Origin: an uncultured Candidatus Saccharibacteria bacterium
Lineage (GTDB): Bacteria > Patescibacteriota > Minisyncoccia > Phycocordibacterales > G965230995
Assembly: GCA_965230995.1 (NCBI GenBank)
Contig: OZ246398.1
Coordinates: forward strand, 144,227 to 208,226
Length of the DNA: 64,000 bases
Direction of reading: 5' to 3'
In this document: piece after piece, positions 10,676 through 61,712 of the stretch
Position numbering within the stretch: position 1 is the stretch's first letter
Layout of the letters: each line of letters opens with the position of its first letter
The notes under the pieces: generated by a model
The model's input: the letters and a program-made list of their open reading frames with translations, nothing else
What the model was told of the DNA's origin: nothing
Database searches by the model: none
Program-made: the position numbers and the translations under genes

Positions 10676-10694
10676 AAGCCCCTTCGGGGCTTTT
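10674..10694. terminator. bidirectional terminator between convergent pilus operons
   Basis: aaaagcccc ttcg gggcttttatttttc. Confidence 0.6.
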
Positions 10695-10703
10695 ATTTTT
10701 CTT

Positions 10704-11915
10704 TTATATTTTATCTGCGAGTGAATACATAGGAGACATCATCGACAAAGCAAAGAACCCCACCGCCCCACCGATAAGTATCATTAGAAATGGTTCGATT
10801 ACAGTAGACATATCTTTTGTTTTTTGCTCGACTTCTTCTTCGTAAAATTTTGCAACCTCAAGCAACATTTCAGATAATTTTCCTGTTTCCTCGCCTACCT
10901 TTGCCATTTCTGAAACATACAATGGGTACAAATTTACCCTGGAAGAAAATATTTCAGAGATGCTTCCACCTTTTACTATCACCTCTCCCGCTTCTTTGAG
11001 AACACTTTTATAATATGAATTTTGCAAAACATCTTCTGTTATTCCAACCGCAATAGTATATTCAACCCCTGAAGAAAGTAGTGAAGAAAGTGTTCTGGCA
11101 GTCCTTGCAGAATTAACTTTTTTTGTGATATCACCTATTAATGGGGTCTTTAAAAAAACATAATCTAAAACTCTCTTTCCATTTTTAGTTCTAAAGTACA
11201 TTCCACCCAAAACAACGACACAAATTACAGCAAATAATGTGAGCAAAAGATTGTTATTTATAAATTCGCTCACATAAATAATTATTTTTGTACTCATCGG
11301 AAGATCAACGCCCAGACCTTTAAATGTTGCAGTAAGAGTTGGCACCACAAAAATAAGCATAAGAGTAGCAATAAGTATCATTGCAAAAAGGATTATGCCA
11401 GGATACATCATCGCGCCTTTGATTTTTTTCTTTAGAATATATGTCCTTTCCATCTGGCCAGAAACAATCTCTAGAGATTCGCTCAAATTACCGCTTTCCT
11501 CGCCTGCTCTAACCATCGAAACAAAAAGCGTAGAAAATACTTCTTTATGTTCAGACAAACATTCGCTTATTGTTTTACCTTTACTCACTCCGTCGTTTAT
11601 ATCAACCAAAACCTTTTTAAATTTACCTTCTTTTGCCTGCTTTTCCATTATTTCCAGAGCTCTGACAACGGGCAAACCAGAGGCAATCATTTTGCCCAAG
11701 TTTCTCGCAAATACAATCAAATCTTGTTCTTTTACTCTACCAAAAGAGAAAGAAATATTAGAAAAAAGTTTTCTACCTGTCTTTTCTTCGACATATATTG
11801 CGGTTAAACCCTGAGATGCAATTTCTGTCGAGATAGCTTCTTTGCTTTCGCCTGTTTTTTCGCCTTCGACTATTTCGCCTTGCTTATTTACAGCCTTATA
11901 AAAATAAGTTTTCAT
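10704..11915 (-). CDS. pilC: type IV pilus assembly platform protein PilC (GspF family)
   Basis: 403 aa, three TM segments, duplicated GspF-type cytoplasmic domains. Confidence 0.85.
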   Translation of the reverse strand: MKTYFYKAVNKQGEIVEGEKTGESKEAISTEIASQGLTAIYVEEKTGRKLFSNISFSFGRVKEQDLIVFARNLGKMIASGLPVVRALEIMEKQAKEGKFKKVLVDINDGVSKGKTISECLSEHKEVFSTLFVSMVRAGEESGNLSESLEIVSGQMERTYILKKKIKGAMMYPGIILFAMILIATLMLIFVVPTLTATFKGLGVDLPMSTKIIIYVSEFINNNLLLTLFAVICVVVLGGMYFRTKNGKRVLDYVFLKTPLIGDITKKVNSARTARTLSSLLSSGVEYTIAVGITEDVLQNSYYKSVLKEAGEVIVKGGSISEIFSSRVNLYPLYVSEMAKVGEETGKLSEMLLEVAKFYEEEVEQKTKDMSTVIEPFLMILIGGAVGFFALSMMSPMYSLADKI

Positions 11916-11942
11916 TACTATAATTGTAGCACAATAAAAATA

Positions 11943-13766: not shown

Positions 13767-14501
13767 TTATTTTCTATATCCGTGAATCTTAATGGTTGTA
13801 TACTGAACCGCCGTGTTAGAGAAATCTTCGGCTATAATACCTGAACAATTTTGTGAACTTACACCTGATCCATCTGTGTTACATTTGACTATCCTAATCT
13901 CCAAGCGTCCATTACTATCGAGAGGTAGCCATGTTGTATCTGACATACCATAATAAGCGTTCCCAACAAATATATTCTTCCAACTGCTCTGGCTAGGCCA
14001 CTTATACTGAATCGCATACCTAGTAGCGCTACCGTCAAAGCTACTTTCTATTAATAGTGCCTTTGCACCAGATGGAACCGAATTCAAACCTGAACCGACT
14101 GTAAACCTTGCAGGATATGTTATTCCATCAGTAGTTTCAATGATAACACTTGGTGTACTAAATAATGTTTCAGTAAAAATAGAATCCTGCCAAGTAGCAT
14201 TCCCTTCTGCATCAGAAGTGAGAACCTTGCCATTACCTGCGTTTGTAGGGATTTTTAATAGTCCATTAAATATTGAACCACCATTTACAAGCAGAGAACC
14301 AAGGGAAAGGCCACCTTCTTTTACTTGGGAAGATGGGCCAACATTAATTGGTGCAAATGTATTTGAATTCGGAGCCTCTGCAATTGGTCCTTGCCATACA
14401 CTATCTTCGTCATATATGTCTTCAGCTTGAAGATAAGAAACTCCAATAACAGAAAGAACGGAAAGTGTGATTATGGATAAATAATGAAGTGTTTTTTTCA
14501 T
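13767..14501 (-). CDS. secreted protein, paralog A of a tandem pair
   Basis: signal peptide MKKTLHYLSIITLSVLSVIGVSYLQA identical to neighbour; shared block GGLSLGSLLVNGGSIFNGLLKIPTNAGxGKVLTSDAEGNATWQ. Confidence 0.6.
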   Translation of the reverse strand: MKKTLHYLSIITLSVLSVIGVSYLQAEDIYDEDSVWQGPIAEAPNSNTFAPINVGPSSQVKEGGLSLGSLLVNGGSIFNGLLKIPTNAGNGKVLTSDAEGNATWQDSIFTETLFSTPSVIIETTDGITYPARFTVGSGLNSVPSGAKALLIESSFDGSATRYAIQYKWPSQSSWKNIFVGNAYYGMSDTTWLPLDSNGRLEIRIVKCNTDGSGVSSQNCSGIIAEDFSNTAVQYTTIKIHGYRK

Positions 14502-14520: not shown

Positions 14521-15306
14521 CTACATAGCCGGACAAATTGTCATTGTCCAAACATAATCAAAGTTATCTGCTCTAATAGTCCATTCGTTTTCAGAATTTT
14601 CTGAATAGCTACCTTCGGAATAGTCGTCGTAGACATAAAAATTATTTCCATAATTTACAAAGTATTTTGCAACACCATCTCCATTTATTCCACGTTGTGA
14701 CCCAGTATCGTCTGTCCAATCTTCACTTGTCGCAATACTTTTTAATTGCCTATAGAAATAGTTTGTACTTCCGTACATTGACTGAGTGGTGATTGCCTCA
14801 TATAGATCTGATTTTAATCGCCACACAGTATAACTACATCCTGAGTTAAGATAAGGACCAGAAGTTGAACCTACACAGATATTTCTTCCAGCAGAGTTTA
14901 TAAGACTAACTCTCCAAAAACGCTTTCCACTGTCGTTCATATAGTCTTCTCGTCTATTATTTCGGTTGGTGGAAGCAACAACACATTGGCTCGCCAAGAC
15001 ATCTGAACTTGATGACTCCTGCCAGGTAGCATTTCCTTCTGCATCAGAAGTGAGAACTTTTCCGTCTCCTGCGTTTGTAGGGATTTTTAATAGTCCATTA
15101 AATATTGAACCACCATTTACAAGCAAAGAACCAAGGGAAAGACCACCTTCTTTTACCTGAGAGGCGTCGCTCACATTTATAGGAGCTGGTGTATTTCCAT
15201 CGGGTGGTGTGGCACTTGGACCATCCCAGGCTTGGAGATACGAGACCCCGATGACAGAAAGAACAGATAGTGTGATTATGGATAAATAATGAAGTGTTTT
15301 TTTCAT
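14521..15306 (-). CDS. secreted protein, paralog B of a tandem pair
   Basis: same signal peptide and about 45-aa conserved block as 13767..14501 (nucleotides near-identical), divergent C-terminus. Confidence 0.6.
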   Translation of the reverse strand: MKKTLHYLSIITLSVLSVIGVSYLQAWDGPSATPPDGNTPAPINVSDASQVKEGGLSLGSLLVNGGSIFNGLLKIPTNAGDGKVLTSDAEGNATWQESSSSDVLASQCVVASTNRNNRREDYMNDSGKRFWRVSLINSAGRNICVGSTSGPYLNSGCSYTVWRLKSDLYEAITTQSMYGSTNYFYRQLKSIATSEDWTDDTGSQRGINGDGVAKYFVNYGNNFYVYDDYSEGSYSENSENEWTIRADNFDYVWTMTICPAM

Positions 15307-44452: not shown

Positions 44453-44776
44453 ATGATTGACTTTGCCAACGAGGCACAGATCCTTCTTAGTGGGATGAAG
44501 AAGGGAGTTCCCATGATGATCGACCACGACCTCATGGCTGAACTGACACGGACGAACGGCAAGATGACGGCGAAGGCATGGCTGTCCCGCGCCTTCGCCG
44601 CCTACAAGGACGGCAGGATCAAGGACTCCCTCCTGTGCCTGCAAGGCGCCGTGGGCAAGGAGAAATTCCCCGAGAAGGAATTTCGGCGCCTGCGGGCGCT
44701 CCGCATCCTCTGTGCGAAGGACCTCGAGCCGGCGTCGGTGCATTCCGAGGGTGGAATGACGACGGCCAAGGACTAA
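44453..44776 (+). CDS. hypothetical soluble protein (107 aa) in a ~60% GC islet
   Basis: own promoter and a GC-rich terminator (cccggcgcgcgcgtagcgtgtgccggg + T7); codon composition unlike flanking genes. Confidence 0.35.
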   Translation: MIDFANEAQILLSGMKKGVPMMIDHDLMAELTRTNGKMTAKAWLSRAFAAYKDGRIKDSLLCLQGAVGKEKFPEKEFRRLRALRILCAKDLEPASVHSEGGMTTAKD

Positions 44777-44800
44777 CCCGACCGAGGGGACAAACTCGGT

Positions 44801-44838
44801 GCCCGGCGCGCGCGTAGCGTGTGCCGGGCTGGTTTTTT
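44801..44838 (+). terminator. rho-independent terminator
   Basis: gtgcccggcgcgcgcgtagcgtgtgccgggctggttttttta. Confidence 0.55.
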
Positions 44839-44893
44839 TATATCCCCAAAAAACAAATTTTGATAATACAGAAAGACAAGCTAATATTGGACG

Positions 44894-46867: not shown

Positions 46868-46902
46868 GTGATTTTTTGGTTAAACTGCTGTACTATTATT
46901 AT

Positions 46903-47729: not shown

Positions 47730-48653
47730 GTGAAATATCTAAAATACACAATCTATATTTTGATAATCTGTGCAATAATTTTTGGCGGATGGTTTCTATA
47801 TGGAAGAAAGCAACAAGAAAATATTTACAAATCAAACTTTATTGCAATAGACACAAAAACTCTCACTACAGAAACAGACACTGATAGCGATGGACTCAAA
47901 GATTGGGAAGAGATTCTTTGGAAAACAAACCCATCTATTGCCGACACAGATGAAGACGGAACAGACGACGGGACAGAAATCAAAGACGGCAGGGACCCAA
48001 CAATAAAAGGCCCAGCTGATACATTAAAGAGAGCAGTTAGTTCTCAAACCAGTGATCTTGCAGAAAATCTTTTCGGTTTCTATCTAAACGAAAGAAAAAC
48101 AGCGGGGGATATTTTACCTGGAACAAGTGAAAAATTGGTAGCAGAAGCCCTCGCAAAAGCCTCAAAACCCAATGAATATAGCCTTATTTCAGAAAAGAAC
48201 ATTAAAACAAATTCTGATAACACAGTAGCAGGGTATAAAGAATACGGAAAAAATATAGCTACGATTATGTCCGAAGTCTCAGCCCAACCAAACGAAGTCC
48301 TAATATTAGCAAAGGCGCTAGAAATGAAAGATGAAAATGTTCTTGCCGAATTGGATCCTTCGATAAAAATGTACAGAAAAATACTTGGGGAAATAACAAA
48401 TACACCAGTACCGAGCAAACTCGCATCAAAACATTTAGATCTCATAAATACAACTATAAAAGTAGTCACTGATATCGAAGGGATAAGAGGTGTTTTCTCT
48501 GATTCTCTTTTGGCATTTTCATCAATCACTTCATATTCACAAAATATTATAAGTCTTGAAAGTTCTCTAAGGGTAATTGGATCTGCTCTAAAACAAAAAG
48601 GTGTCGAGTATTCCACAGATGAAATTGGTTATGGTCTTGTAAATGTTCTATAA
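47730..48653 (+). CDS. membrane-anchored protein with thrombospondin-type-3-like calcium-binding repeats (first gene of T4SS-like operon)
   Basis: N-terminal TM; DTDSDGLKDWEE and DTDEDGTDDGTE repeats. Confidence 0.5.
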   Translation: MKYLKYTIYILIICAIIFGGWFLYGRKQQENIYKSNFIAIDTKTLTTETDTDSDGLKDWEEILWKTNPSIADTDEDGTDDGTEIKDGRDPTIKGPADTLKRAVSSQTSDLAENLFGFYLNERKTAGDILPGTSEKLVAEALAKASKPNEYSLISEKNIKTNSDNTVAGYKEYGKNIATIMSEVSAQPNEVLILAKALEMKDENVLAELDPSIKMYRKILGEITNTPVPSKLASKHLDLINTTIKVVTDIEGIRGVFSDSLLAFSSITSYSQNIISLESSLRVIGSALKQKGVEYSTDEIGYGLVNVL

Positions 48654-48663
48654 TAGATAAAGG

Positions 48664-50013
48664 ATGTCAGGACGAAATCCTTACGCGTTTGGTTTTGCAA
48701 AAGCCAGCATTATTGTTGGAGTTTTCTGTTTGGTTTTTTCTCCACTTTTTCCTATGCCCGAGAAAAAAGCCGAGGCACAAATTGCATCTGCAGTTGGGAG
48801 CATAGCTGCTTGTTTCGGAATCAGTGCTCTTTTTAATATCGCAAGTGGTGCCGCTACTGTTGCTAACGCTGTTCTAGCTGTTCCCGTCAGCGATGCAGTA
48901 ACACAAATGAACACAAACCTCACACAGGGCAACACTGCAAGCTCTCTCAACAAGGAATGTTCTCTAGACACAATCGGTTTTGCTATTGCAAAAGTCATAT
49001 TGGAAGATATGGCGAATAATTTTATAAACTACATAAACAACGGCTTCGAAGGTGATCCTTTCTTTATCTCTTCACCTGGCGAATATTTCAAAGGGTTGGC
49101 TGACGAAATAGTAGGGGAATTTCTTTCACAGGCAGGTCTAGATTTTCTCTGTAAACCATTCCAACTGCAATTACGAAATGCTCTCAAAATACAATATGGT
49201 GGCGGAGGTAAAGCAAAATACAGAGAAAAAGGTTGTACTCTTACAGATATTGTCGGCAACGTCGATGGCTTTATCGAAGGTAATTTTGAAGATGGAAACT
49301 GGCTCGGCTTTATCGAAATAACACAAAATCCAAACAACAACCCCGTCGGAGCATTCCTTTCAATCCAAGGTGAAATCGACGATAGAATCGCTGCTAAATT
49401 GGGAGTTGAAAACAAATTGCTCGATTGGAATATGGGATTCTTTTCACAAAAGGTAAAGGGACCAGACGGCGTCGAGAGAATTGTCACACCAGGAAGCCAG
49501 ATAGAGAATCAGCTCGCACTGCATCTCGGAAGTGGGGTAAGACAACTTGAACTCGCAGACGAATTCAACGAAATATTGAGCGCCCTTTTCACTCAGCTTC
49601 TAAAACAGGCTTTCTCAAAAGAAGGTATAGCAGGTTATGTTAAACCAGCAGACGACACAGCGACATACGAAGAAGATATGGCTGAACTAAAAATCGAAGG
49701 TGAAGGATTGATCGAAGAAGCAAGATTCCTCGTTACAGATAATCCGGGTAGACTTTCTACAGTAGATATCGCTAACCTCGATTACTATTCAAGAGCAATA
49801 AACGACGCAATTGCAAAAAACAATAGAATCGACCTAAGCAATGCAAATGTGTTTATGGCACAAAAGATCAAAGAAATAAAAGACAGAATCGCAGAGGAAG
49901 ACGGAACACCTCCTCCACCAGAAGACAATCCTGATGATCCGCCCGAAGAAGAAGATGACCCAGGAGACATTGGTGACGCCCCAGAACAAAACCCATTTGG
50001 TGACGATGAATAA
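48664..50013 (+). CDS. membrane-anchored protein with acidic Pro-rich C-terminus (T4SS-like operon)
   Basis: 449 aa; N-terminal hydrophobic helices; tail EDGTPPPPEDNPDDPPEEEDDPGD. Confidence 0.5.
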   Translation: MSGRNPYAFGFAKASIIVGVFCLVFSPLFPMPEKKAEAQIASAVGSIAACFGISALFNIASGAATVANAVLAVPVSDAVTQMNTNLTQGNTASSLNKECSLDTIGFAIAKVILEDMANNFINYINNGFEGDPFFISSPGEYFKGLADEIVGEFLSQAGLDFLCKPFQLQLRNALKIQYGGGGKAKYREKGCTLTDIVGNVDGFIEGNFEDGNWLGFIEITQNPNNNPVGAFLSIQGEIDDRIAAKLGVENKLLDWNMGFFSQKVKGPDGVERIVTPGSQIENQLALHLGSGVRQLELADEFNEILSALFTQLLKQAFSKEGIAGYVKPADDTATYEEDMAELKIEGEGLIEEARFLVTDNPGRLSTVDIANLDYYSRAINDAIAKNNRIDLSNANVFMAQKIKEIKDRIAEEDGTPPPPEDNPDDPPEEEDDPGDIGDAPEQNPFGDDE

Positions 50014-50016
50014 AAA

Positions 50017-52329
50017 ATGAAAAAAATATTATCCGCATTTGTAATATCAATAGTAACAGCAGTTTCATTGCTTTTGCCTTTTAGTGCAAATATTTCCGGA
50101 CACAATCTAAGCATCGGAATCGGATATCAGAGCGCTTCTGCACAAGATACAACCAATCAACCTGAACCGAGTTTTGCAGAATCAGTTGCATCATACATTA
50201 CAAAAGGATTGTCAGTATGGCTCACACAACAATTGTATGTTTTATATGCAATCTGCGCACTGCTTATGTTTATTGCTGGTTTTATATTAAACCTCGTAAT
50301 TGAACTTACAATTGTAGACCCAGAATTATTATTACCGAGAACTGTTATATCGAGCCTGTGGGTAATATTCCGCGATATTGCAAATGCTACTTTCCTTTTT
50401 GTGCTCCTTTACGGTGCCATTCAAACAATGCTTGGCCTTGCTGGTGCGGGTGTTAAAAAATTAATACTAAATGTCGTTATCGTTGCTATTGTTGTGAACT
50501 TTTCTCTCTTTGCTACCCGAGTTGCCATAGATTTTTCAAATATTTTGACTTTGGCTGTTTACAATCAAATAATGGGAAAAACAGAAAAAGCTCCATCTAA
50601 AGGTTTAAATCCTCTTACTGGTGACTTCAGTTTGAAGAACGCAGAATCAAAAATGGCAGAGATGGCACAGGAGCTCGGTGGTGGACTCTCAGGAAAATTT
50701 ATAAGTGCAACTGGTCTCCTAAAATCATTAACACTATCTGTGGATCTCAAAGCAGATATTGCGAACTTCGTTACAATACCAGTAAAAATCGTGGTTTACA
50801 GTATCTTCCTCCTTATCTCTGCAGCAATGCTGTTTTCAGTGTCGGTAGTATTTTTGATTAGATTCGTGGTAGTTGTATTTTTGATGGTCTTATCACCGAT
50901 AGCGTTTGTCGGTTTTATACTGCCTTCGCTCAGAAGTAAACTGACCAGCAAATGGACGGATTATCTAATGAACGCAATGTTCTTTCCGCCTTTGTTTTTC
51001 CTTTTAACGTATTTGTCGCTAAAGATAATTGATGGTCTGAACAAAAGCTGGACTGTAGGTTCAAGTAATAATTTTGCAATAGAAATTGTTTCTATCGGTT
51101 TTTCACTATTTATATCAGGATTCTTTTTGATGACACCCCTACTAGCGGCTACTATATTTAGCGCAAAGGGAACCGAATTTATGAGTAGCTTTACAAAAGG
51201 AGTGAGTGGAAAGATAAAAGGTTTTGCAGGACAAGGAGCAAATATTGCTTCAAGGAATACTCTTGGAAGAGGTGGAAGATGGATGGAATCTAAATTTAAA
51301 GATTCAAAGTTTATGAATCTAGCCCCAATGAGAGACCTACGTGCTGCCACAACACAAAGATTAGAGGGTATAAAATTTGGCGGTGGAAGATCTCTTGAAG
51401 AAGCTGAAAAAGAAAGCCGAACGACTGCAAAATTACAATCAGAAATTAACGACAGAAGCAAATTTGCAAGCAATCAAGCAAATTATGCTAATGCGAAGGC
51501 AGAATACGATAGAATCGACAGAATGCCAGATAAGACAGACGCAGAAAAAGCAGCAAAAGAAAGCGCATTTGAGACGTTCAGAGGTACGGACAACGCAAAA
51601 ATTCTACGAGAGACAAGAGAATATGTTGAAGGTTGGGGAGCAAATGATATCAAGGATAACAAAGATGATATTAAAAGAAATAGCGCCGACGAAGCCATTC
51701 ACATTAAAGACTCCGCTCTCGAGGCTTACGCCAAAACAGACGACCCAGAAGCAAAAAGTTTTGTTGACGAAATTTACAAAAAGAAACTACAGAATCTACG
51801 GACCGTCCTTGGTACTCCAGGGGTTACTTCGGACAACATAAAGAAAGCAGTCTCTGGTTTGTCAAACGAAGCATTAAAACGTTTGGAATTCAATGAATTG
51901 CGTACGATAATGACAAAAGCAGGAGGGGCAATCAAAGGGGAAAAACTAAAAGATATAACGAAGTCACTCCCTCCTGAAGACAAAAAATTACTCCAGGCAG
52001 ATCGTGAAAAACATTTTAAAGAAGAGGCGGTAAAGGCCAACGGAAAGGCGGTAGCTTCTGGAATTGATGTTAGTGAGATTGAAAATTTTAGTGATAACTT
52101 CTTGGAAAGTAACGAGATTGTTCCGTACCTTTCACCCGCAATGCTTCAGAGGCTCGTTAATGAAAAAAACACAACTAACTTTCTAGAAATTGGTAAAATA
52201 CTAGTAGGCATTGACAGCGGGACAATACCACCAACTCCGATGGATACAGCTGGGGCAGCAAAAGCTGGGGCAGCAAAACTTCTTAAGTTTTTGAGAGGTA
52301 AACCGGTAGGTGGAACATTTGGATTATAA
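50017..52329 (+). CDS. VirB6/TrbL-like polytopic membrane protein with long charged C-terminal extension
   Basis: 770 aa; signal peptide; about 7 TM helices across residues 60-390, then a 380-aa K/E-rich helical tail. Confidence 0.55.
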   Translation: MKKILSAFVISIVTAVSLLLPFSANISGHNLSIGIGYQSASAQDTTNQPEPSFAESVASYITKGLSVWLTQQLYVLYAICALLMFIAGFILNLVIELTIVDPELLLPRTVISSLWVIFRDIANATFLFVLLYGAIQTMLGLAGAGVKKLILNVVIVAIVVNFSLFATRVAIDFSNILTLAVYNQIMGKTEKAPSKGLNPLTGDFSLKNAESKMAEMAQELGGGLSGKFISATGLLKSLTLSVDLKADIANFVTIPVKIVVYSIFLLISAAMLFSVSVVFLIRFVVVVFLMVLSPIAFVGFILPSLRSKLTSKWTDYLMNAMFFPPLFFLLTYLSLKIIDGLNKSWTVGSSNNFAIEIVSIGFSLFISGFFLMTPLLAATIFSAKGTEFMSSFTKGVSGKIKGFAGQGANIASRNTLGRGGRWMESKFKDSKFMNLAPMRDLRAATTQRLEGIKFGGGRSLEEAEKESRTTAKLQSEINDRSKFASNQANYANAKAEYDRIDRMPDKTDAEKAAKESAFETFRGTDNAKILRETREYVEGWGANDIKDNKDDIKRNSADEAIHIKDSALEAYAKTDDPEAKSFVDEIYKKKLQNLRTVLGTPGVTSDNIKKAVSGLSNEALKRLEFNELRTIMTKAGGAIKGEKLKDITKSLPPEDKKLLQADREKHFKEEAVKANGKAVASGIDVSEIENFSDNFLESNEIVPYLSPAMLQRLVNEKNTTNFLEIGKILVGIDSGTIPPTPMDTAGAAKAGAAKLLKFLRGKPVGGTFGL

Positions 52330-52331
52330 AA

Positions 52332-53165
52332 ATGAAAAACATTCCAAAAGATTTATTGAAAAAAATTACGTCCGATGAAACAAATTCATTTATAGATGAA
52401 ATGATAGTTTCAAATGGCTTTACCGAAGAGCAAGGATCTGCTCTCGGTAATGAAACTGGTAGATACATGTTAGGAAAAACAAAATCTGATCGTTTTGTTC
52501 CTAATTTGATGTATAGAATGGATATAAACAGAACTACGGCAGAAGCAATAAAAGAAAAAATAGATCAGGAGCTTGTCGCGCCAGTACGGGCTTCATTTGA
52601 ATTTGCTCAAGCAAATGATTTATTTTCTGAAAACACCAATGAAGTCAAAGTGTCTGTTTCAAATCAAAATACAGAAGAAGACAATGGGGGAGTCGATATA
52701 ATGAAAGAATCTCCAGAAAAACAAGAGAGCACTGAAACTAATCCTAAAAAGGAACAGATAGTAAGCGATATAGAAAACCCTCTACACAAACAAGAATCTG
52801 CCACAGCAAAAGAAAATGATTCATATTCTAACTACACACCACTTAATGTAATTAAGGACGATGTCTTGAAGGGAATAGAAGACCCTGTAAAAGAGACCCC
52901 GCCAGCACCAGAAGAAAGCGAGGCAACAGAACTTGATTTGGAACTGGATGCCATATTAAAAAAACCTAGAGTATCAAGCCAAATCGAGCCAGATTTACCA
53001 ACAGAAAACCCTCGGGATATTCCAAAATTTACTGAAAGCCACACACAAACACCGCCCGTAACAGCATCAAAAAATCCTGAACAAAAAAGACCAGCAATTG
53101 ATATTAGACCATCGTCTGGTTCAGCTTATAAAAGTGGGGACCCGTACAGAGAACCAATAGAATAG
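52332..53165 (+). CDS. hypothetical acidic soluble protein (T4SS-like operon)
   Basis: 277 aa ORF, 3-nt spacing. Confidence 0.5.
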   Translation: MKNIPKDLLKKITSDETNSFIDEMIVSNGFTEEQGSALGNETGRYMLGKTKSDRFVPNLMYRMDINRTTAEAIKEKIDQELVAPVRASFEFAQANDLFSENTNEVKVSVSNQNTEEDNGGVDIMKESPEKQESTETNPKKEQIVSDIENPLHKQESATAKENDSYSNYTPLNVIKDDVLKGIEDPVKETPPAPEESEATELDLELDAILKKPRVSSQIEPDLPTENPRDIPKFTESHTQTPPVTASKNPEQKRPAIDIRPSSGSAYKSGDPYREPIE

Positions 53166-53202
53166 ATTTCGTGTTTTTTGATTTAGGTTCTATACTATAT
53201 GT

Positions 53203-53631
53203 ATGCAATTTCAAGTTCCTCAATATATAGAAGAAGATGACAAAATATTTTGGATGCTTTCTTTCAAACAAGCAATTTATATTGCCGGCGGTTTGGGTAT
53301 ATCTTTTGTAATCTACTACTTTTTAGGTTCACTATTATTTTCAATTCCTTTTATTGTACCGGTTCTTGTATTATCAGGATTACTAGCTTTCTACAGACAT
53401 AACAATAGACCCTTTATTTTCCTACTGGAAGCAATGTTCTACTATATGCTTAGCGACAAATTGTTCATCTGGAAAAAGATTCCAAAATATAATAATGAAA
53501 AAAGTACAGAAAAAGTAGAAAAAACAACAGACGAATTATCTATACCACGAGTAACCCAAGGTAACATCCATAATCTTTCTTGGAAACTGGATATGAATAT
53601 CGATGAAAAAAATGTGGATAAGCGAATATGA
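53203..53631 (+). CDS. small two-TM protein (PrgI/VirB3-like candidate)
   Basis: 142 aa; two adjacent TM helices; immediately upstream of the VirB4 ATPase, as VirB3-type proteins usually are. Confidence 0.45.
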   Translation: MQFQVPQYIEEDDKIFWMLSFKQAIYIAGGLGISFVIYYFLGSLLFSIPFIVPVLVLSGLLAFYRHNNRPFIFLLEAMFYYMLSDKLFIWKKIPKYNNEKSTEKVEKTTDELSIPRVTQGNIHNLSWKLDMNIDEKNVDKRI

Positions 53632-53643
53632 TATAATTAACTC

Positions 53644-54273
53644 ATGGCAATATCTTCAAAAACAGCACAAGAATTTGTACCGATAAAAGAAATCCGAAAC
53701 GAAACTGTCATAATGAAAGACGGATCTCTTCGTGGCGTTGTTTTGTGTTCTTCAATAAACTTTGCCCTCAAATCCGAGGATGAAAGAATGGCTGTTTTGG
53801 CGCAGTTTCAAAACTTTCTGAACTCACTCGATTTTGAAGTCCAGATATCAGTACAATCGAGAAAACTTGATATAAAATCATATCTTTCATTACTTGAAAC
53901 AAGAGAGGGGCAACAGATTAATGACCTGATGAGGATACAATTGAAAGAATATGTTGCTTTCATAAAGGATCTCACCGAAAAGATAAACATAATGACAAAG
54001 AATTTCTTTATTGTCGTTACATACAAACCATCAATCACAAGCGGGGAATCGGGGGTAGGAATACTAAAATTCGGTAAAAAACAAAGCGCCGAAGAAAAAA
54101 ATCAAACATTCGGAGAATCAAAATCACAGCTCGACGAAAGAATATCATTCGTGATGCAGGGTATTACCAGAACTGGAGTACGTGCAGAAAGACTTGGAAC
54201 CGAAGAGTTAATAGAATTGTATTATAGAACATTTAACCCAGGGGATACACAAGACCCTGCCAGAGCAATGTAA
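53644..54273 (+). pseudogene. VirB4/TraE-type conjugation ATPase, N-terminal portion (split from the C-terminal portion by a frame change)
   Basis: 209 aa resembling Gram-positive VirB4 N-domains; the next ORF starts 2 nt later in a different frame; 209 + 601 aa equals typical VirB4 length. Confidence 0.5.
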
Positions 54274-54274
54274 T

Positions 54275-56080
54275 ATGTCTTTATTAGATTTTTTCAAAAA
54301 AAATAAAACGACAACAGAACCCGTTTTGCCACAGGATATTTATGATGCGTCTGTTTTGGAATTGCAGGATGTCATTGCCCCAAGCGCACTCAAAATAAAT
54401 TCAAAAGAGACAATGATTTCTGGGATGATGGTTAGATCATATTTTGTCGTTTCATATCCTAGATTTGTTGGGGAAGACTGGCTTTCTCCTATTGTAAACC
54501 TAGACAAAGTATTTGATATTTCAATTTTTGTACATCCAATAGATACTTCTGTTATTCTAAAAAAATTCCAGAAAAAAGTAGCTGAAGTAGAAAGCCAAAT
54601 AAATGAACGCCAAGAAAAAGGACTCGTTAGAGATCCAAAACTAGAAATTGCATATCAAGACCTCGAAAATCTTAGAGATCAATTACAGCAAGCATCAGAA
54701 AAAATGTTTGATGTTGGTTTGTACATTTCTTTGTACGGAAAAGACGAAGCAGAAATAGATAAAGTAGAATTGGAAATAAAATCAATTTTGGAATCAAAAC
54801 TTATCTATGTTAAACCTGCTCTATTCCAACAAAAAGAGGGTTTTCTTTCTATGATTCCAACTGCTGACGATGCCTTGATGGTGCATACAAAAATGAATTC
54901 CTCTCCACTCTCGAGCACCTTTCCTTTTGTATCGTTTGACCTCACGTCTGATAGGGGAATATTGTATGGACTAAACAGACATAATTCAGGTCTTATACTT
55001 TTTGATAGATACTCGCTTGAAAACTACAATTCTATTACTTTTGCAAAATCTGGTTCAGGAAAATCTTATGCAACAAAACTAGAAATCCTTCGAACTTTGA
55101 TGTTTGATACCGAGGTTATAGTAGTTGACCCAGAAAAAGAATATCAGTACCTCGCCGAAGCAGTGGGGGGCAGATTCTTTAATATTTCTCTTAACTCTGA
55201 ACACCACATAAATCCATTTGAATTACCAACTCCAGGAGAAGACGAATCGGCAGAAAGCGTTCTTCGTTCAAACATCATAAACCTTGTTGGTTTGTTTAGA
55301 ATTATGCTTGGTGGTCTTTCTCCAGAAGAAGACGCAATAATCGACCAAGCCATAATGCAAACTTATGCATTAAAAGACATTACACCTGATTCAGATTTCA
55401 GAAATATCGAACCTCCACTTATGTCAGACTTTGAATTGGTGCTCTCTGGTATGCAAGGCGGAGAATCTCTCGCACAGAGACTCACAAAATATACAAAGGG
55501 TACTTGGGCTGGGTTCATAAACCAACCATCAAATATTGATATGAACAAAAAGCTTGTTGTATTTTCACTTCGAGATATGGAGGACGAGCTAAAGCCTATT
55601 GCAATGTATATTATTATGCATTACATCTGGAACACAGTCAGAAAGGATATCAAAAAGAGACTTCTTGTTATTGATGAAGCGTGGTGGATGATGAAATCCG
55701 AAGACACCGCATCATTTTTGATGGGACTTGTTAAAAGAGGGCGAAAATATTATCTTGGTGTATCTACAATCACACAAGACGTCGAAGACTTTTTGCGATC
55801 ACCATATGGAAAACCTATTATCACAAACTCTTCAATACAAGTCTTACTCAAACAATCTCCGTCAGCTGCCGACGTTCTACAAAATGTTTTTAATCTAACA
55901 GATGAAGAAAAATACACATTGCTTGAATCTGGAGTAGGAGAGGGGATTTTCTTTGCTGGAATAAAACACGCAGCTATAAAAGTCTATGCTTCTTATACAG
56001 AAGACCAGATTATTACATCTGACCCATCACAGTTACTTGCTATAAAAAAAGCAAAAGAAGAATTAAGAAATAGCCTTTAA
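54275..56080 (+). CDS. VirB4/TraE-type type IV secretion ATPase (C-terminal ATPase portion)
   Basis: Walker A FAKSGSGKSY; Walker B RLLVIDEAWWMM; motif GRKYYLGVSTITQDVEDF. Confidence 0.8.
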   Translation: MSLLDFFKKNKTTTEPVLPQDIYDASVLELQDVIAPSALKINSKETMISGMMVRSYFVVSYPRFVGEDWLSPIVNLDKVFDISIFVHPIDTSVILKKFQKKVAEVESQINERQEKGLVRDPKLEIAYQDLENLRDQLQQASEKMFDVGLYISLYGKDEAEIDKVELEIKSILESKLIYVKPALFQQKEGFLSMIPTADDALMVHTKMNSSPLSSTFPFVSFDLTSDRGILYGLNRHNSGLILFDRYSLENYNSITFAKSGSGKSYATKLEILRTLMFDTEVIVVDPEKEYQYLAEAVGGRFFNISLNSEHHINPFELPTPGEDESAESVLRSNIINLVGLFRIMLGGLSPEEDAIIDQAIMQTYALKDITPDSDFRNIEPPLMSDFELVLSGMQGGESLAQRLTKYTKGTWAGFINQPSNIDMNKKLVVFSLRDMEDELKPIAMYIIMHYIWNTVRKDIKKRLLVIDEAWWMMKSEDTASFLMGLVKRGRKYYLGVSTITQDVEDFLRSPYGKPIITNSSIQVLLKQSPSAADVLQNVFNLTDEEKYTLLESGVGEGIFFAGIKHAAIKVYASYTEDQIITSDPSQLLAIKKAKEELRNSL

Positions 56081-56082
56081 TT

Positions 56083-56694
56083 ATGGCTGAAAATACAGAC
56101 ATCGAGGTAATACCAAAAAGGTCTGAGCAAGAACCAGGCATAGAAAGAGTTCCTAAAAGACCGCCGAGAATAAAGACTTGGGTTTTTTGTGCAATGCTCA
56201 TTGTCGCAATCATACTTGATTTAGTTAGCCTCATTCCAGCAGCAAATGACATTACGCTCGTAATTGCCGGTATTCTTTTTGGATTATGGTGGTGGAAACT
56301 CGGACTTGGTTTCCTTAATTTAAAGAAAATAATCACATACTCTCTTTCTGTAATAGTCGAAGCTGTCCCTATTTTGGCCGTTTTGCCCGCTGTTACACTG
56401 GCTGTTGTCGTAACCTTTGTTATTTCTAGGGGAGAAGATAAATTGGGCATTAGCATTATGCCTGGAAAATTTGGCATAGACGCAGGAAAAAATCCAAAAA
56501 GAATTGGCTTAAAAGAGAGATTCAACTCACTTAAAAAAGAAACTAAATGGACCGAGGACGAGAAAAAAATCTTTAAAAGAAAAGATGATACAGCAAGAAA
56601 AGATAAGAACCCACTAGCCTTTGTACCAGGGGAGTATTCAAAAGAAACTGGTTCGCTCGAGGACACAGACAAAGAATACGATATTGACGAATAG
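56083..56694 (+). CDS. polytopic membrane protein (T4SS-like operon)
   Basis: 203 aa, 3-4 TM helices then K/E-rich tail; preferred over the antisense ORF 56040..56705 because it continues the plus-strand operon with 3-nt spacing. Confidence 0.5.
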   Translation: MAENTDIEVIPKRSEQEPGIERVPKRPPRIKTWVFCAMLIVAIILDLVSLIPAANDITLVIAGILFGLWWWKLGLGFLNLKKIITYSLSVIVEAVPILAVLPAVTLAVVVTFVISRGEDKLGISIMPGKFGIDAGKNPKRIGLKERFNSLKKETKWTEDEKKIFKRKDDTARKDKNPLAFVPGEYSKETGSLEDTDKEYDIDE

Positions 56695-56747: not shown

Positions 56748-57734
56748 ATGCAAAGAATCTTTTTCTTTTTATCCTTGTTCTTGTTATTTTTTGTTTTTGC
56801 ATCTAATACAAAAGCTCAGAGCAATGCTGTCACTCCTTTTGATATTAAAAACGAAACTAACATTTATGTTTCTCCACAAAACCCTCAGAAAGGCCAAGAT
56901 TTTGAAGTATCCATTGAAAGCTATTCGCTCAACTTGGACGCCTCGACAATATCTTTTTATGCAAATGATGTTTTAATCCAAAAAGAACTTGGAAATAAAA
57001 AGGCTATAATACCAAACAAAAGCACAGTAACTGTTGTGAGGATTTTGATTGAAACATCGCAAGGAAATTTTATAGAAAAAGAAAAAATAGTTTATTCAAA
57101 TTCACTTTCATTAGTCTGGAATGCACAGACAACTGTACCGCCTTTTTACAAAGGCAAAGCTCTTCTTTCAGACGGATCAGAAGTCATAATATCAGCAATT
57201 ACAGAAATCACAGACGAAAACAACAAACAAATTCCACAGGAGCTTTTGATTTTTACATGGAAAGTCAACGGAAAAACAAAATTGGATTTATCGGGAATAG
57301 GAAAGAGTGAAATCGTGATAAGTGATGTTGTGGTAGATGATAAATACAAAATATTTGTAACTGCTGAATCTCGAGATCAAAAATATACTGCCACAAATTA
57401 TCTTGAAATTTCTTTTAGCAACCCAAAGGTTTTGCTTTACGAAACAGACCCTCTCTTTGGACCCTCAAGCTATGCTCTGTCTAATTCTAAAACTACAAAA
57501 AACGAATTGGGAGTAGTTGCTGTCCCTTTCTTTTTCAAAAAAGGAGCGCAAGATAATGTTGTATCTTTTACATGGAGAGTCAACGGCGAAACAGCAAAGA
57601 CAAAGTCGAACCGAATATCGCTACGAAACGAAAAGGGAGGGGAGGGCTATATTGAAATATCAATCCTAGCCGAGAGTCTTCTCGATAAATTTCAAAGATT
57701 CAGTAAAAAAATAACGCTCGAAGCAATAAAATGA
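56748..57734 (+). CDS. secreted protein (T4SS-like operon)
   Basis: signal peptide MQRIFFFLSLFLLFFVFASNTKA; beta-rich. Confidence 0.5.
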   Translation: MQRIFFFLSLFLLFFVFASNTKAQSNAVTPFDIKNETNIYVSPQNPQKGQDFEVSIESYSLNLDASTISFYANDVLIQKELGNKKAIIPNKSTVTVVRILIETSQGNFIEKEKIVYSNSLSLVWNAQTTVPPFYKGKALLSDGSEVIISAITEITDENNKQIPQELLIFTWKVNGKTKLDLSGIGKSEIVISDVVVDDKYKIFVTAESRDQKYTATNYLEISFSNPKVLLYETDPLFGPSSYALSNSKTTKNELGVVAVPFFFKKGAQDNVVSFTWRVNGETAKTKSNRISLRNEKGGEGYIEISILAESLLDKFQRFSKKITLEAIK

Positions 57735-58984
57735 TAAGAAAGAATTTTAAAATAATCTTGTTGTCTATCATAATAGTTTTATGTTTTGCTTTTGTAAAAA
57801 TTACTTTTGCAGCAGACGATAGCGGACTACTCACCTATACACCAATGGAAGTGATAGACGGCCTTACACCGGAAAAAATGCCAGTTAATCTGTCAGATTA
57901 CCTCAATCGGCTTTATGTATTTCTAATTGCATTTTCTTCTGTTATCGCCGTTGTAATGATAACAATTGGTGGTTTTACTTATATTCTATCTGCAAGTTCC
58001 GGTGGAAAAGAAGACGGCAAGGGGATGATAAAAAATGCAATTTTTGGTCTTTTGTTAATGTTTCTTAGCTATCTAATCGTAAATACAGTTAACCCAAGCG
58101 CTCTGGATTTTAATATTTTCAAAAATGCAACTCCTATAAAACCGGTAAGTTTGGAAATTAATACTTCAGGAGAAGGTCAAACCGCTCTAGAAGGGCTCGA
58201 CCCGACCAAAAAAGGACAGTGGGCACTTAGAGTTGTCTCACCAGAAAATTCAGAAATTAGATATTATGATACACAAGTTAAATGTTTATCTGAAAAAGAA
58301 TCGCTTTCTGAAGCAACAACTGCAAAATACAAGATGCCGGCAACAAGTCAATGCACAGCAAAGACTATGAATGTAGATAAAGTATATTATTTTACTTATG
58401 ACTATAAGGATTGGCCGGATAGAAATGTCGTCGAGACGACCAGCTGGTCTGCAACTGGAAAAACAAATTCTATTGCTACAACAGAGATTTCAGAGACAAC
58501 AATGGAAGCCTGTAAACAAAAAAAAGAAGAGGTTATCGCAAAAGCATTAGACAGAAAACCTTATCGTCCAACAACTGCCTGTACATCTCTCCATAATTCT
58601 GAAAATACAAATCAATTTAATTTTAGTTTTATATATCCTTACGGAGAAACGGAAGCAAGAGAATTTGCTACAAAATCATACTCAACAAAAGAATGTGTAC
58701 AAAAATATAAGTTTATCTCAACATACTATGAACCTTATAAGAACATATCGGAATGTAAGGAAAAAAAACCTACCAATTCGACTCAGAAAGCAACCTACTA
58801 TTGCCAAGAGGGGATAGAAATGTATTTGGACGGAAATAATGTGGGGGAACAATCTAAAGGAACAAATAAAACTTCTGGTAATGATTGTTTCAGGACAAAA
58901 TCAGAATGTGAACAAAACTTCAACGAAAAAAAGGTTCAATTAATGCCAAGATATAATTTATCATCATGCATACTGGTAAAATAA
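57731..58984 (+). CDS. VirB2/TrbC-like pilin domain fused to a 270-aa Cys-rich extracellular domain
   Basis: signal peptide then two hydrophobic helices LYVFLIAFSSVIAVVMITIGGFTYILSA and GMIKNAIFGLLLMFLSYLIVNTVNP (T4SS pilin topology), then a C-terminal region with at least 12 Cys. Confidence 0.5.
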   Translation: MIRKNFKIILLSIIIVLCFAFVKITFAADDSGLLTYTPMEVIDGLTPEKMPVNLSDYLNRLYVFLIAFSSVIAVVMITIGGFTYILSASSGGKEDGKGMIKNAIFGLLLMFLSYLIVNTVNPSALDFNIFKNATPIKPVSLEINTSGEGQTALEGLDPTKKGQWALRVVSPENSEIRYYDTQVKCLSEKESLSEATTAKYKMPATSQCTAKTMNVDKVYYFTYDYKDWPDRNVVETTSWSATGKTNSIATTEISETTMEACKQKKEEVIAKALDRKPYRPTTACTSLHNSENTNQFNFSFIYPYGETEAREFATKSYSTKECVQKYKFISTYYEPYKNISECKEKKPTNSTQKATYYCQEGIEMYLDGNNVGEQSKGTNKTSGNDCFRTKSECEQNFNEKKVQLMPRYNLSSCILVK

Positions 58985-60165
58985 AATTAATACTACTTAC
59001 TCTCGGAGCAATATTGGTAATTGCAATTATTGCTTTGTTCACGTATGGTTATTTTGAATCAAAAAATAATGGTAAAACGCTAACACAAACAGTTGTAGAT
59101 ATTTTTCCAAGATCTTCTAAAACAGAAAATACTCCAAATACAGAAGAACCAGCGGAACAACCCCCAGTAGAAATTCCAACAAACACCACCGATATTTACA
59201 CTAAAAAAATTAGAAAAATAGCTAGCGGTCCTATTTCTGGTTCATTTTTTACTGGTACATCAACAGTAAGATACGTAGATAAAGGAACAGGAAATGTGTA
59301 TGAATATTCCTATTACACTAACACAACAAAAAAATTAACATCAACTGTCATCCCGGGAATAAACGATACATTTTGGGTAAACAACAATACTTTTTTTGGT
59401 AGATATGCAGATACAGACTCTGAAATAATTCGTACATTTTTAGGAACAATATCAAATCCCGGAGAGTCTGGCGTTCTTTCAATTGAATTCTTTGAACAAA
59501 ATATAAAAGCAATGACTGTTTCTCCAAAAGGGGATAGAGTCGCTTATCTAGTGGAAAGCGGTCAATACGGAGTTGTTGCAATATATGACATAAAGAAAAA
59601 AACGATTGCTAGAATATCTACAATACCAGGAAGCGAATATTCATTACACTGGAACGAAAATGGATTATACGCTCAAAGCAATGCATCATTTAATCTACCA
59701 GGGTATCTCTTAAAACTATCCCTGACTGGAGAACAGCCAAAAATTGTTATACCTTCTGTTCTAGGTTTACTTTCAAAACCAATCAAAGCAGGTTTCATCG
59801 TATCGTCTTTTAGTACCACACAAGGATATTCTTATATAATGACAAATTCACAAAAGGTAAGTCTGGAAAATCTTGTTATCCCTGAAAAATGCGTAGAAGC
59901 AAAAGAAAATATCTATTGTGCAGTATCTTCTTTAAACAATGAATCTGGTATGCCAGACTCATGGTACAGCGGGGAAACTAGATTGATAGACCGATTAGAA
60001 AAAATAAATATCAAAAATCCACTTGAAAAAGAAGTCGTTTATACATCAGCACTTGGAGAAGACGGCTCGTTTGATATGATCAATCTTCAGATTTCTCAAG
60101 ATTACGAAACACTTATATTTACAGAAAAGGGAACAGGCGATCTCTGGAGTATAGACATAAGATAA
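58966..60165 (+). CDS. membrane-anchored secreted protein (last gene of T4SS-like operon)
   Basis: 399 aa; N-terminal TM; overlaps previous gene; terminator follows. Confidence 0.5.
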   Translation: MHTGKIKLILLTLGAILVIAIIALFTYGYFESKNNGKTLTQTVVDIFPRSSKTENTPNTEEPAEQPPVEIPTNTTDIYTKKIRKIASGPISGSFFTGTSTVRYVDKGTGNVYEYSYYTNTTKKLTSTVIPGINDTFWVNNNTFFGRYADTDSEIIRTFLGTISNPGESGVLSIEFFEQNIKAMTVSPKGDRVAYLVESGQYGVVAIYDIKKKTIARISTIPGSEYSLHWNENGLYAQSNASFNLPGYLLKLSLTGEQPKIVIPSVLGLLSKPIKAGFIVSSFSTTQGYSYIMTNSQKVSLENLVIPEKCVEAKENIYCAVSSLNNESGMPDSWYSGETRLIDRLEKINIKNPLEKEVVYTSALGEDGSFDMINLQISQDYETLIFTEKGTGDLWSIDIR

Positions 60166-60170
60166 TAAAA

Positions 60171-60198
60171 CAAAAAAACCGCTTTGGCGGTTTTTTTG
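60171..60198. terminator. bidirectional terminator
   Basis: aaaaaaaccgc tttg gcggtttttttg. Confidence 0.6.
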
Positions 60199-60199
60199 T

Positions 60200-60652
60200 T
60201 TATATCTGAGAATATTTTATCACCACTCTTCTTTCTTTACCCTCACCAATAGACGATGTTTCGATTCTAATATCGTCACCGAACATATTGTGTATGAGTA
60301 GTCTCTCGTAAGAATTCATCGGCCTTAGCTCTATTGTTTTTTTGGTTTTTACAACTTCTTCGACTGTCTTTCTGACTTCTGCTATAAGCTGATTCATCTC
60401 GTCTTGTTTGTAACCATTTATATCTATATTGAATTTTGCTTCGCTCTTTGTCTTTTGTTTGATTATGAGGCTGAGCAAATGGTGATATGCGTCTATATGT
60501 TCTCCTCTTTTTCCAATAGCCCTTCCAGAATCGTTCGTTCTCACGTTATAAACGATAATATCGCCCTGTTTTACAATTTCTACGTCTATTACATGGACGT
60601 CTAATTTTGCAAAAAAATCTTTTATTAAGGCTATAGTTTCTTCTTGTGTCAT
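60200..60652 (-). CDS. jag: Jag/KhpB RNA-binding protein (KH + R3H domains)
   Basis: 150 aa; GRAIGKRGEHIDAYHHL KH block; R3H-like C-terminus; downstream of yidC as usual. Confidence 0.8.
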   Translation of the reverse strand: MTQEETIALIKDFFAKLDVHVIDVEIVKQGDIIVYNVRTNDSGRAIGKRGEHIDAYHHLLSLIIKQKTKSEAKFNIDINGYKQDEMNQLIAEVRKTVEEVVKTKKTIELRPMNSYERLLIHNMFGDDIRIETSSIGEGKERRVVIKYSQI

Positions 60653-61379: not shown

Positions 61380-61712
61380 TTAGCTTATTTTTTTGTGTAT
61401 CTCAACCATAACTTGAGCTACATCGTTTTTAATTAATTCTTTATCTGCATTTTTAATTGTTGGTTTAACAAAAAAAATAACATCACAAACACTATCTAGT
61501 ATGTGATTTTCGATTGCATCAAAAACCTGCCTTCGTATTCTATTTCTATCGTGGGCAAGCTTATAAACCTTTTTTGGGACAACAACGGCAAAACGAGGCT
61601 TTTCTTCCGCCTTTTTTGCCCTTATGGCAAAAAGATTAGTGCTAAAAACCTTTGAGCCCTTGAAAACAAGATCAAATTTATCCTTTTGAAGTCTTCTTTG
61701 CTTTGAAAGCAT
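61380..61712 (-). CDS. rnpA: ribonuclease P protein component
   Basis: 110 aa; RNR motif NRIRRQ; positioned between rpmH and yidC. Confidence 0.85.
   Translation of the reverse strand: MLSKQRRLQKDKFDLVFKGSKVFSTNLFAIRAKKAEEKPRFAVVVPKKVYKLAHDRNRIRRQVFDAIENHILDSVCDVIFFVKPTIKNADKELIKNDVAQVMVEIHKKIS

Follow-up and report, generated by a model that had tools for sequence, protein, structure and literature searches.

A T4SS_pilin-family hairpin protein with a cysteine-rich C-terminal extension encoded in a type IV secretion cluster of a Candidatus Saccharibacteria bacterium

Introduction

Type IV secretion systems (T4SSs) of Patescibacteria are encoded by VirB4, TrsD, PrgI/VirB3, VirB6 and VirB2-like genes that often lie beside dnaA, dnaN, rnpA and ksgA (PMC12102498). 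In Southlakia, the T4SS and its array of VirB2-like pilins are essential for epibiotic growth (PMC10633639; PMC12857230). PrgB-like adhesins have not been detected in Patescibacteria, and VirB1 is usually absent (PMC12102498). Here, we describe a gene within such a cluster, located on a stretch of 64,000 nucleotides (hereafter the window; contig OZ246398.1 of assembly GCA_965230995.1, positions 144,227 to 208,226) from an uncultured Candidatus Saccharibacteria bacterium. Its product is predicted to join a VirB2-like membrane hairpin to a long, cysteine-rich extracellular tail.

The closest described counterparts are the VirB2-like pilins of Southlakia epibionticum ML1, where the pilin array is essential, and of Nanosynbacter lyticus TM7x, which also carries an array (PMC10633639, PMC12102498). 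They belong to the same Pfam family, share the topology of a signal peptide followed by a hairpin, and likewise have PrgI/VirB3, TrsD, VirB4 and VirB6 as neighbours in a cluster on the chromosome close to dnaA. Patescibacteria pilins are small, however (104-182 amino acids in the relatives analysed here), and often occur as arrays of 2-11 divergent copies, whereas we found one gene with a 290-amino-acid Cys-rich tail; variation seems to be placed in the tail of this one gene instead of being spread over an array of paralogues. The TrbC/VirB2/TraA pilins (PF04956) of F, RP4 and Ti also share the signal peptide and two helices joined by a short basic loop. In contrast to the protein described here, these are mature peptides of ~70 amino acids, some of them cyclised head to tail, a form incompatible with a large C-terminal domain, and their hosts are diderm whereas the present host is monoderm.

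Two further systems offer parallels. The Bartonella Trw T4SS has amplified variants of TrwL (VirB2) and TrwJ (VirB5) for host-specific adhesion (cited in PMC12102498). The likeness is one of concept: variation in surface-exposed pilus subunits sets host specificity, but Trw varies by tandem duplication of small pilins and the present locus by an appended domain. In addition, large Cys-rich extracellular proteins of Candidate Phyla Radiation (CPR) bacteria have been proposed to mediate attachment (PMC4736985). By their description, these Peribacteria proteins are similarly secreted, Cys-rich and strain-variable, yet they are large, stand-alone proteins that are not fused to a T4SS pilin. The T4SS, its near-origin position and the VirB2-like pilins are already known, while the Cys-rich tail is a new and very rare domain family.

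Results

The gene starts with ATG and encodes 417 amino acids in a single open reading frame (ORF; Table 1). A Kyte-Doolittle analysis with a 19-residue window identified three hydrophobic stretches (residues 1-29, ~56-89 and ~96-124); beyond residue 125 every window was hydrophilic, leaving no further transmembrane (TM) segment. Such a profile is what would be expected from a signal peptide, a hairpin of two helices and a long soluble tail. The same topology, with a short loop between the helices and no TM segment in the tail, had been proposed in an earlier sequence-only reading, for which a model saw the DNA letters and a list of translated reading frames. Cleavage of the leader was inferred to occur after Ala27, within a T-F-A-A motif that forms a plausible signal peptidase I site between its two alanines. 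We rejected a lipoprotein reading of the leader: C18 is preceded by I-V-L, which makes no lipobox, and is not conserved. Within the hairpin, TM helix 1 (~residues 58-89) and TM helix 2 (~residues 100-120) flank a Lys-rich loop, SSGGKEDGKGMIK, with three Lys residues, and TM helix 2 terminates in a conserved NP-x-AL motif. Single-sequence AlphaFold2 (AF2) prediction placed helices at residues 54-89 and 96-119, with predicted local distance difference test (pLDDT) values of ~58-70. Following the positive-inside rule, the Lys-rich loop would place both ends of the hairpin, and hence the tail, outside the cytoplasm.

A Pfam-A scan with hmmscan matched residues 57-119 to PF18895 (T4SS_pilin) at 27.1 bits (E 4.3e-6; profile positions 8-70 of 71), against a gathering cut-off of 26.6 bits. 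Among four homologues described below, P0002 (41.6 bits) and L011 (29.7 bits) also exceeded this cut-off, and P0003 (24.7 bits) and L010 (24.4 bits) fell just below it; on these scores the pass is marginal yet consistent across the group. No match to PF04956 (TrbC/VirB2; cut-off 27.9 bits) was found for the 417-amino-acid protein in Pfam at E up to 1, and the L011 homologue reached a sub-threshold 17.1 bits. Two proteins retrieved by a profile of the N-terminal part, P0013 and P0014, match both families, scoring 26.9 bits and 29.1 bits (above the cut-off), respectively, with PF04956. The link to classical TrbC/VirB2 pilins is only transitive, through P0013 and P0014. A search of PDB sequences with the N-terminal profile returned nothing below E = 0.18. 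The T4SS-pilin assignment made by the sequence-only reading was thus upheld through PF18895 and the surrounding T4SS cluster, but not as a direct similarity to TrbC/VirB2.

The protein differs from its family in what follows the hairpin. Nine relatives of the pilin part are 104-182 amino acids long, compared with 417 here, and the protein does not stop soon after the second helix as a small pilin does. The extension begins past the NP-x-AL motif, the point at which the short pilins of L006 (described below) end, and the variable linker starts where ordinary family members stop. After TM helix 2 there is a linker of ~35 residues, and the remaining ~255 residues can be read as four tandem modules.

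The part of the protein after TM helix 2 measures ~290 rather than the ~270 amino acids first estimated, and holds 10 Cys instead of at least 12; the only other Cys of the 11 in the protein is C18 in the signal peptide. The tail Cys (C185, 208, 261, 284, 322, 342, 358, 386, 393 and 413) lie 23, 53, 23, 38, 20, 16, 28, 7 and 20 residues apart, with pairs recurring at 23, 23, 20 and 20 residues, in line with the regular C-x(n)-C spacing that had been noticed. They make up 10/289 tail residues (3.5%), compared with 0.71% in the 68 gene-like ORFs of the window, and the tail is enriched in Cys beyond chance. In an alignment of all five available sequences, 10/10 tail Cys were invariant, as were only 15 of the ~279 other tail positions; P0002 carries one extra Cys pair within an insertion. 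The invariant tail residues are Cys, Tyr, Lys, Pro, two Glu, Leu, Phe and Thr, and include no His, Asp or unpaired Cys.

The division of the tail into four modules was made by eye. In the recurring pattern, an aromatic-rich strand, a variable loop, a second strand and a helix starting x-E-C-x-x-K are followed by a P/K-Y motif, and the final Cys of each module lies 20-23 residues after the first. When aligned with one another, the putative modules have in common two invariant Cys and this strand-strand-helix layout. Insertions and deletions among the homologues fall in the hairpin loops and the inter-module linkers, and the hairpin loop of module 4 varies in length by up to ~45 amino acids. When hidden Markov models (HMMs) were built from one class of module at a time and 2,400 shuffled decoys were scored alongside, the remaining modules placed close to the top, with E-values of only ~0.01-1, which are non-significant; homology between the modules is plausible on this basis. 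AF2 prediction of module 3 from a 12-row module alignment yielded a strand at positions 3-11, a second strand at 15-24 and a helix at 26-39. This model agrees with the module pattern and is too weak for a fold assignment.

The architecture was conserved in all homologues that we identified. The identical protein is encoded on four independently assembled contigs, the longest of 742,714 bp, a length in keeping with a genome of CPR size. Searched exhaustively by phmmer, using just the tail as query, 1.84 billion representatives yielded P0002 (458 amino acids, E 6.8e-25) and P0003 (405 amino acids, E 1.9e-15) as true relatives; a repeat protein from the same search, P0004, was judged spurious. 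A metagenome scan added L010 (403 amino acids) and L011 (398 amino acids). A word-index search with the full-length protein retrieved only the protein itself, and a search with a tail profile retrieved only P0001 and P0002. With five sequences in all, the tail domain family is tiny as far as these searches reach. In each of the four homologues (398-458 amino acids, 35-39% identity), a single unbroken ORF runs from the leader through the pilin hairpin and the linker to the Cys-rich tail. Their surroundings are also retained: the homologue of the 328-amino-acid gene lies upstream in 4/4, that of the 399-amino-acid gene downstream in L007, L008 and L011 (the contig of L010 stops shortly past the pilin gene), jag comes next in L008 and L011, and L011 carries the whole cluster from PrgI to rnpA. 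That the ORF is one gene, rather than two merged by a missed stop, was therefore confirmed by the continuous homologues and by flanking genes that match wherever contigs reach.

We additionally compared divergence along the protein and the cluster. The tail is 33-34% identical to those of P0002 and P0003 and 26% identical to that of L011, compared with 58-62% in the pilin part. When the window was compared with L011, identity was 87.5% for VirB4, 74% for YidC, 71% for the TrsD-like protein, 60% for the pilin hairpin, 55% for both PrgI and Jag, 42.5% for both the 399-amino-acid protein and the 203-amino-acid membrane protein, 38% for the 328-amino-acid protein, 33% for RnpA and 26% for the pilin tail, making the tail the most divergent segment of the cluster in this comparison. 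In the closest pair of homologues, P0003 (L008:631-1848) and L010 (621-1832), the hairpin shows 92.6% identity with a nonsynonymous rate (dN) of 0.045, a synonymous rate (dS) of 0.48 and a ratio (omega) of 0.09; the tail shows 62% identity, with dN 0.254, dS 1.19 and omega 0.21. The dS of the tail is thus 2.5 times that of the hairpin, a gap that might stem from recombination or from a mosaic origin of the gene's two halves.

A C-terminal extension on such a hairpin proved to be unusual but, judging from further loci, not unique. The architecture that the sequence-only reading had called unusual is indeed so beside the nine short relatives, but other hairpin fusions exist. In L005, which represents a more distant relative and comes from a metagenome-assembled genome (MAG) labelled Saccharibacteria, the cluster has the same order from the VirB6-like gene to dnaA (identity of 72% for VirB4 and 56% for DnaA); a counterpart of the 203-amino-acid membrane protein was not found there by tblastn. 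Between the homologues of the 328- and 399-amino-acid genes, a 409-codon ORF (L005:9635-10861, +) encodes a Cys-rich insert, a PF18895 hairpin and a tail with ETTSG and GHMQV motifs. This tail is weakly lysozyme-like (SLT_2 18.3 bits, below the cut-off; RpfC E 0.14) and unrelated to the window tail (hhalign probability 0.1%). From these matches, the L005 protein could be a VirB2-VirB1 fusion, which would be of interest given that VirB1 is reportedly missing from most T4SS clusters of Patescibacteria.

In L004, two paralogues (9926-10858 and 12720-13619, both +) share a nearly identical T4SS_pilin hairpin and linker and carry different tails, one matching NlpC/P60 (27.5 bits, cut-off 23) and the other with 12 Cys and no family match. 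T4SS core genes were not detected within 20 kb of them. The L004 MAG is labelled Bdellovibrionales, and the contig has a GC content of 35%. Like the window protein, the L004 and L005 fusions place a Cys-containing extracellular domain behind a T4SS_pilin hairpin and a Gly/Ser/Thr linker, and the L005 gene also occupies the same locus; they differ from the window protein in that their tails are unrelated in sequence to the window tail and at least one is enzymatic. In L006 (Peregrinibacteria), a tandem array of five PF18895 pilins of 131-233 codons (9683-12261, +) shows a different form of elongation, with the extra sequence of the longer members lying between leader and hairpin, not C-terminal to the hairpin. 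From these comparisons, the pilin hairpin appears to act as a carrier of exchangeable extracellular modules. No account of VirB2-like pilins with such extensions in CPR bacteria came up in the literature searched, the coverage of which was incomplete, and this absence is no proof of novelty; as far as we found, large, interchangeable extracellular domains on a pilin hairpin encoded at a fixed T4SS locus are undescribed.

The pilin gene is the second-to-last of a co-directional run, three genes downstream of VirB4 (Table 1). Its start shares 4 bp (ATGA) with the upstream stop, and the 399-amino-acid gene overlaps its 3' end by 19 bp. The set of VirB4, TrsD, PrgI/VirB3, VirB6 and VirB2-like genes, found near dnaA, rnpA and a ksgA-like ORF (at 46876), matches the mating-pair formation (MPF) FATA-like T4SS of Patescibacteria (PMC12102498), with the proviso that the TrbL_3 match is weak. 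VirB4 is split: the 209-amino-acid TrsD-like protein matches positions 101-236 of NF045975, and the 601-amino-acid ATPase is encoded one base away. This is the arrangement already described for monoderm and Patescibacteria systems. No TraF-like protease was recognised in the cluster by Pfam or NCBIfam scans, and pilin-hairpin HMMs found no second pilin-like ORF in the window or within 5 kb past its end.

The two flanking proteins, of 328 and 399 amino acids, had no family match in Pfam, NCBIfam or PHROGs. They are kept together with the pilin wherever contigs reach, including L005, with overlapping stop and start codons, and are probably extracellular partners of the T4SS. The 328-amino-acid protein contains recurring F-T/S-W-K/R-V-N-G motifs that suggest repeated beta-rich domains, and the 399-amino-acid protein gave only faint hints of a beta-propeller. 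A DNA hairpin downstream of the 399-amino-acid gene probably marks the end of the operon; beyond it lie the convergent jag-yidC-rnpA genes (rnpA at 61380-61712) and then dnaA at 62126.

Table 1. Features of the pilin gene and of its cluster, with coordinates counted from the first letter of the window.
Feature	Coordinates	Strand	Basis or remark
Whole gene, T4SS_pilin-family with C-terminal Cys-rich extension	57731..58984	+	ORF list, Pfam, hydropathy
Predicted Sec-type signal peptide, residues 1-27 (MIRKNFKIILLSIIIVLCFAFVKITFA, followed by ADD)	57731..57811	+	Hydropathy; equivalent leaders in all homologues
PF18895 T4SS_pilin domain, residues 57-119	57899..58087	+	Pfam, hydropathy, AF2 helices, 58-62% identity
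Gly/Thr/Ser/Pro-rich variable linker, residues 125-160	58103..58210	+	Length and sequence differ among homologues
Putative module 1, residues 161-209, Cys pair C185/C208	58211..58357	+	
Putative module 2, residues 216-284, C261/C284, long variable hairpin loop	58376..58582	+	AF2 helix 255-273
Putative module 3, residues 294-344, C322/C342	58610..58762	+	Low-confidence strand-strand-helix model
Putative module 4, residues 353-417, C393/C413 plus extra pair C358/C386	58787..58981	+	
Core T4SS genes upstream of the pilin gene	50017..56694	+	Pfam, NCBIfam
Secreted 307-amino-acid protein	47730-48653	+	
449-amino-acid protein	48664-50013	+	
770-amino-acid polytopic protein, VirB6-like	50017-52329	+	Weak TrbL_3 match
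277-amino-acid protein	52332-53165	+	
PrgI/VirB3	53203-53631	+	PF12666, 36.3 bits
209-amino-acid TrsD-like protein	53644-54273	+	Matches N-terminal part of VirB4 models (NCBIfam)
VirB4 ATPase, 601 amino acids	54275-56080	+	P-loop_TraG 97.3 bits; AAA_10
203-amino-acid membrane protein	56083-56694	+	
Upstream partner, secreted, 328 amino acids, signal peptide, no Cys	56748..57734	+	Found upstream in every homologue
Downstream partner, 399 amino acids, N-terminal TM anchor	58966..60165	+	Conserved where contigs reach
Strong 15-pair hairpin, A- and T-runs on both sides	60168..60201	.	Between the convergent 399-amino-acid gene and jag

Elsewhere in the window, we observed type IV pilus genes, including an N_methyl pilin-like gene at 7484-7933. 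Adjoining this region, two adjacent genes (13767-14501 and 14521-15306, both on the minus strand) have the same first 26 residues (MKKTLHYLSIITLSVLSVIGVSYLQA) and then diverge; neither has a Pfam match. In addition, a GC-rich island (44453-44850, +) occupies the gap between an M23/LysM peptidase gene and a UvrD-like helicase gene, reaching 61-64% GC over ~44500-44800 compared with ~36% around it. It contains a 107-amino-acid ORF (44453-44776), downstream of which lie two GC-rich hairpins and a T-run. Folding is strong on either strand (z ~ -5.7), and Pfam, PHROGs, Rfam and tRNA/tmRNA searches gave no match; foreign origin is one possibility for the island, and a small gene that has gone unrecognised is another.

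Discussion

We propose that the 417-amino-acid protein is a VirB2-like (PF18895) subunit of an origin-proximal chromosomal Patescibacteria T4SS, and that its tail, a linker followed by four disulfide-stapled modules, contacts the host; we regard this reading as evenly poised between right and wrong. In the corresponding model, the protein would be exported by Sec and its signal peptide cut after Ala27, and the two helices would enter the membrane as a hairpin, leaving the Lys-rich loop on the cytoplasmic side and the C-terminus outside. Oxidative folding outside the cell would turn the tail into a rod of four beta-hairpin/helix modules, in each of which a disulfide connects the helix start to the module end. 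The hairpin would serve as the membrane anchor of the tail or, should the subunit be polymerised by the T4SS like VirB2/TraA, would display the tail on the surface of a filament, and the variable tail would contact the host cell surface and supply specificity or adhesion. We infer such a role in adhesion or host recognition because the tail is singled out as the host-interacting part both by the rate gradient and by the domain swapping. This reading is in keeping with the need for the T4SS and its pilins in epibiotic growth (PMC10633639), with the failure to detect PrgB-like adhesins in the phylum (PMC12102498) and with the attachment role proposed for Cys-rich extracellular proteins of CPR bacteria (PMC4736985).

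Filament geometry can be compared with known pili. F- and T-pili expose the pilin termini outward, with ~700 square angstroms of surface per subunit. A radial chain of 6-8 kDa modules on a 35-residue linker would fit a filament, and a compact 32-kDa globule would be tight.

Several observations weigh against a host-contacting pilin. The adhesin-like label that the sequence-only reading had attached to the tail found no backing: searches of Pfam (E up to 1), NCBIfam and PHROGs gave no match to an adhesin, a lectin or any other family, and a tail profile reached a best E of 0.18 against PDB sequences. AF2 produced no usable structure (mean pLDDT 39.9 for the whole protein and 56.4 for module 3), Foldseek searches with these low-confidence models returned only noise, and the four-module reading is drawn from a sequence pattern. 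The average tail omega of 0.21 indicates faster evolution under relaxed purifying selection and does not demonstrate net positive selection. On the pilin side, the PF18895 score is marginal, at 27.1 against 26.6 bits. As the pilin search covered 64 kb, there may be further short pilin genes elsewhere in the ~743-kb genome. Finally, our literature search found no protein of the PF18895 family for which a pilus has been demonstrated.

This last point also favours a different view of the protein, in which the hairpin does not polymerise and is a mere membrane anchor, and in which rod and linker are structural and, together with the 328- and 399-amino-acid proteins, bridge the cell wall and S-layer instead of engaging the host. 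We consider this view somewhat unlikely. It would account for the conserved trio of genes with their overlapping stop and start codons, and monoderm T4SSs are generally without pili (PMC12102498); by geometric estimate, a 32-kDa appendage on each subunit would also crowd a VirB2-type filament. However, one would not expect a purely structural spacer to evolve faster than any other part of the cluster (26% identity, compared with 38-88% for other cluster proteins), nor to give way to an unrelated domain at the L005 locus.

Alternatively, the protein could be a pro-protein whose tail is cut off at the linker and then serves as a secreted factor or is discarded during pilin maturation. The flexible, variable linker starts exactly where normal family members stop, and C-terminal trimming and cyclisation are known for TrbC/VirB2 pilins such as those of RP4 and Ti. 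We nevertheless find this decidedly improbable, as the cluster encodes no recognisable TraF-like protease, the linker shows no evident conserved cleavage motif, and discarding a 290-residue domain with five disulfides would be costly in a ~743-kb genome. That the tail is an enzyme, for example a hydrolase of the host's or the cell's own cell wall, seems very improbable. The hairpin-NlpC/P60 fusion of L004 (27.5 bits, cut-off 23) and the weak SLT_2 and Rpf similarity of the L005 positional orthologue would fit an enzyme, but the window tail itself has no family match, shares an hhalign probability of only 0.1% with the L005 tail, and lacks the invariant His, Asp or free Cys of a catalytic centre, its 10 Cys being even in number and spaced in pairs. 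An artefact, whether two genes fused through an overlooked stop or a frameshift, or an ORF that does not code for protein, can be set aside, with no point in its favour and with the identical protein on four contigs, four continuous, divergent homologous ORFs and dN/dS below 1 in both halves against it.

Returning to the host-contacting pilin, a bolder extension of it would be a T4SS filament or membrane platform built from subunits that each bear a host-recognition rod of four disulfide-stapled modules, with the PF18895 hairpin as a portable carrier on which Patescibacteria would exchange extracellular modules at one T4SS locus; those observed so far are the Cys-rich rod, a lysozyme-like domain and NlpC/P60. 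We hold this extension to be unlikely. If true, it would explain both the missing adhesin and the often-missing VirB1 hydrolase of these systems.

The T4SS of Patescibacteria and its VirB2-like pilins are essential for epibiotic life in the one member that is genetically tractable (PMC10633639). The tail family is tiny, with five sequences, and the direct reach of the finding is therefore limited. Within that reach, a pilin subunit with a fast-evolving, disulfide-stabilised exposed end is a concrete and testable candidate for a specificity determinant, a candidacy that is strengthened because the tail is exchanged for hydrolase-like domains in related genomes.

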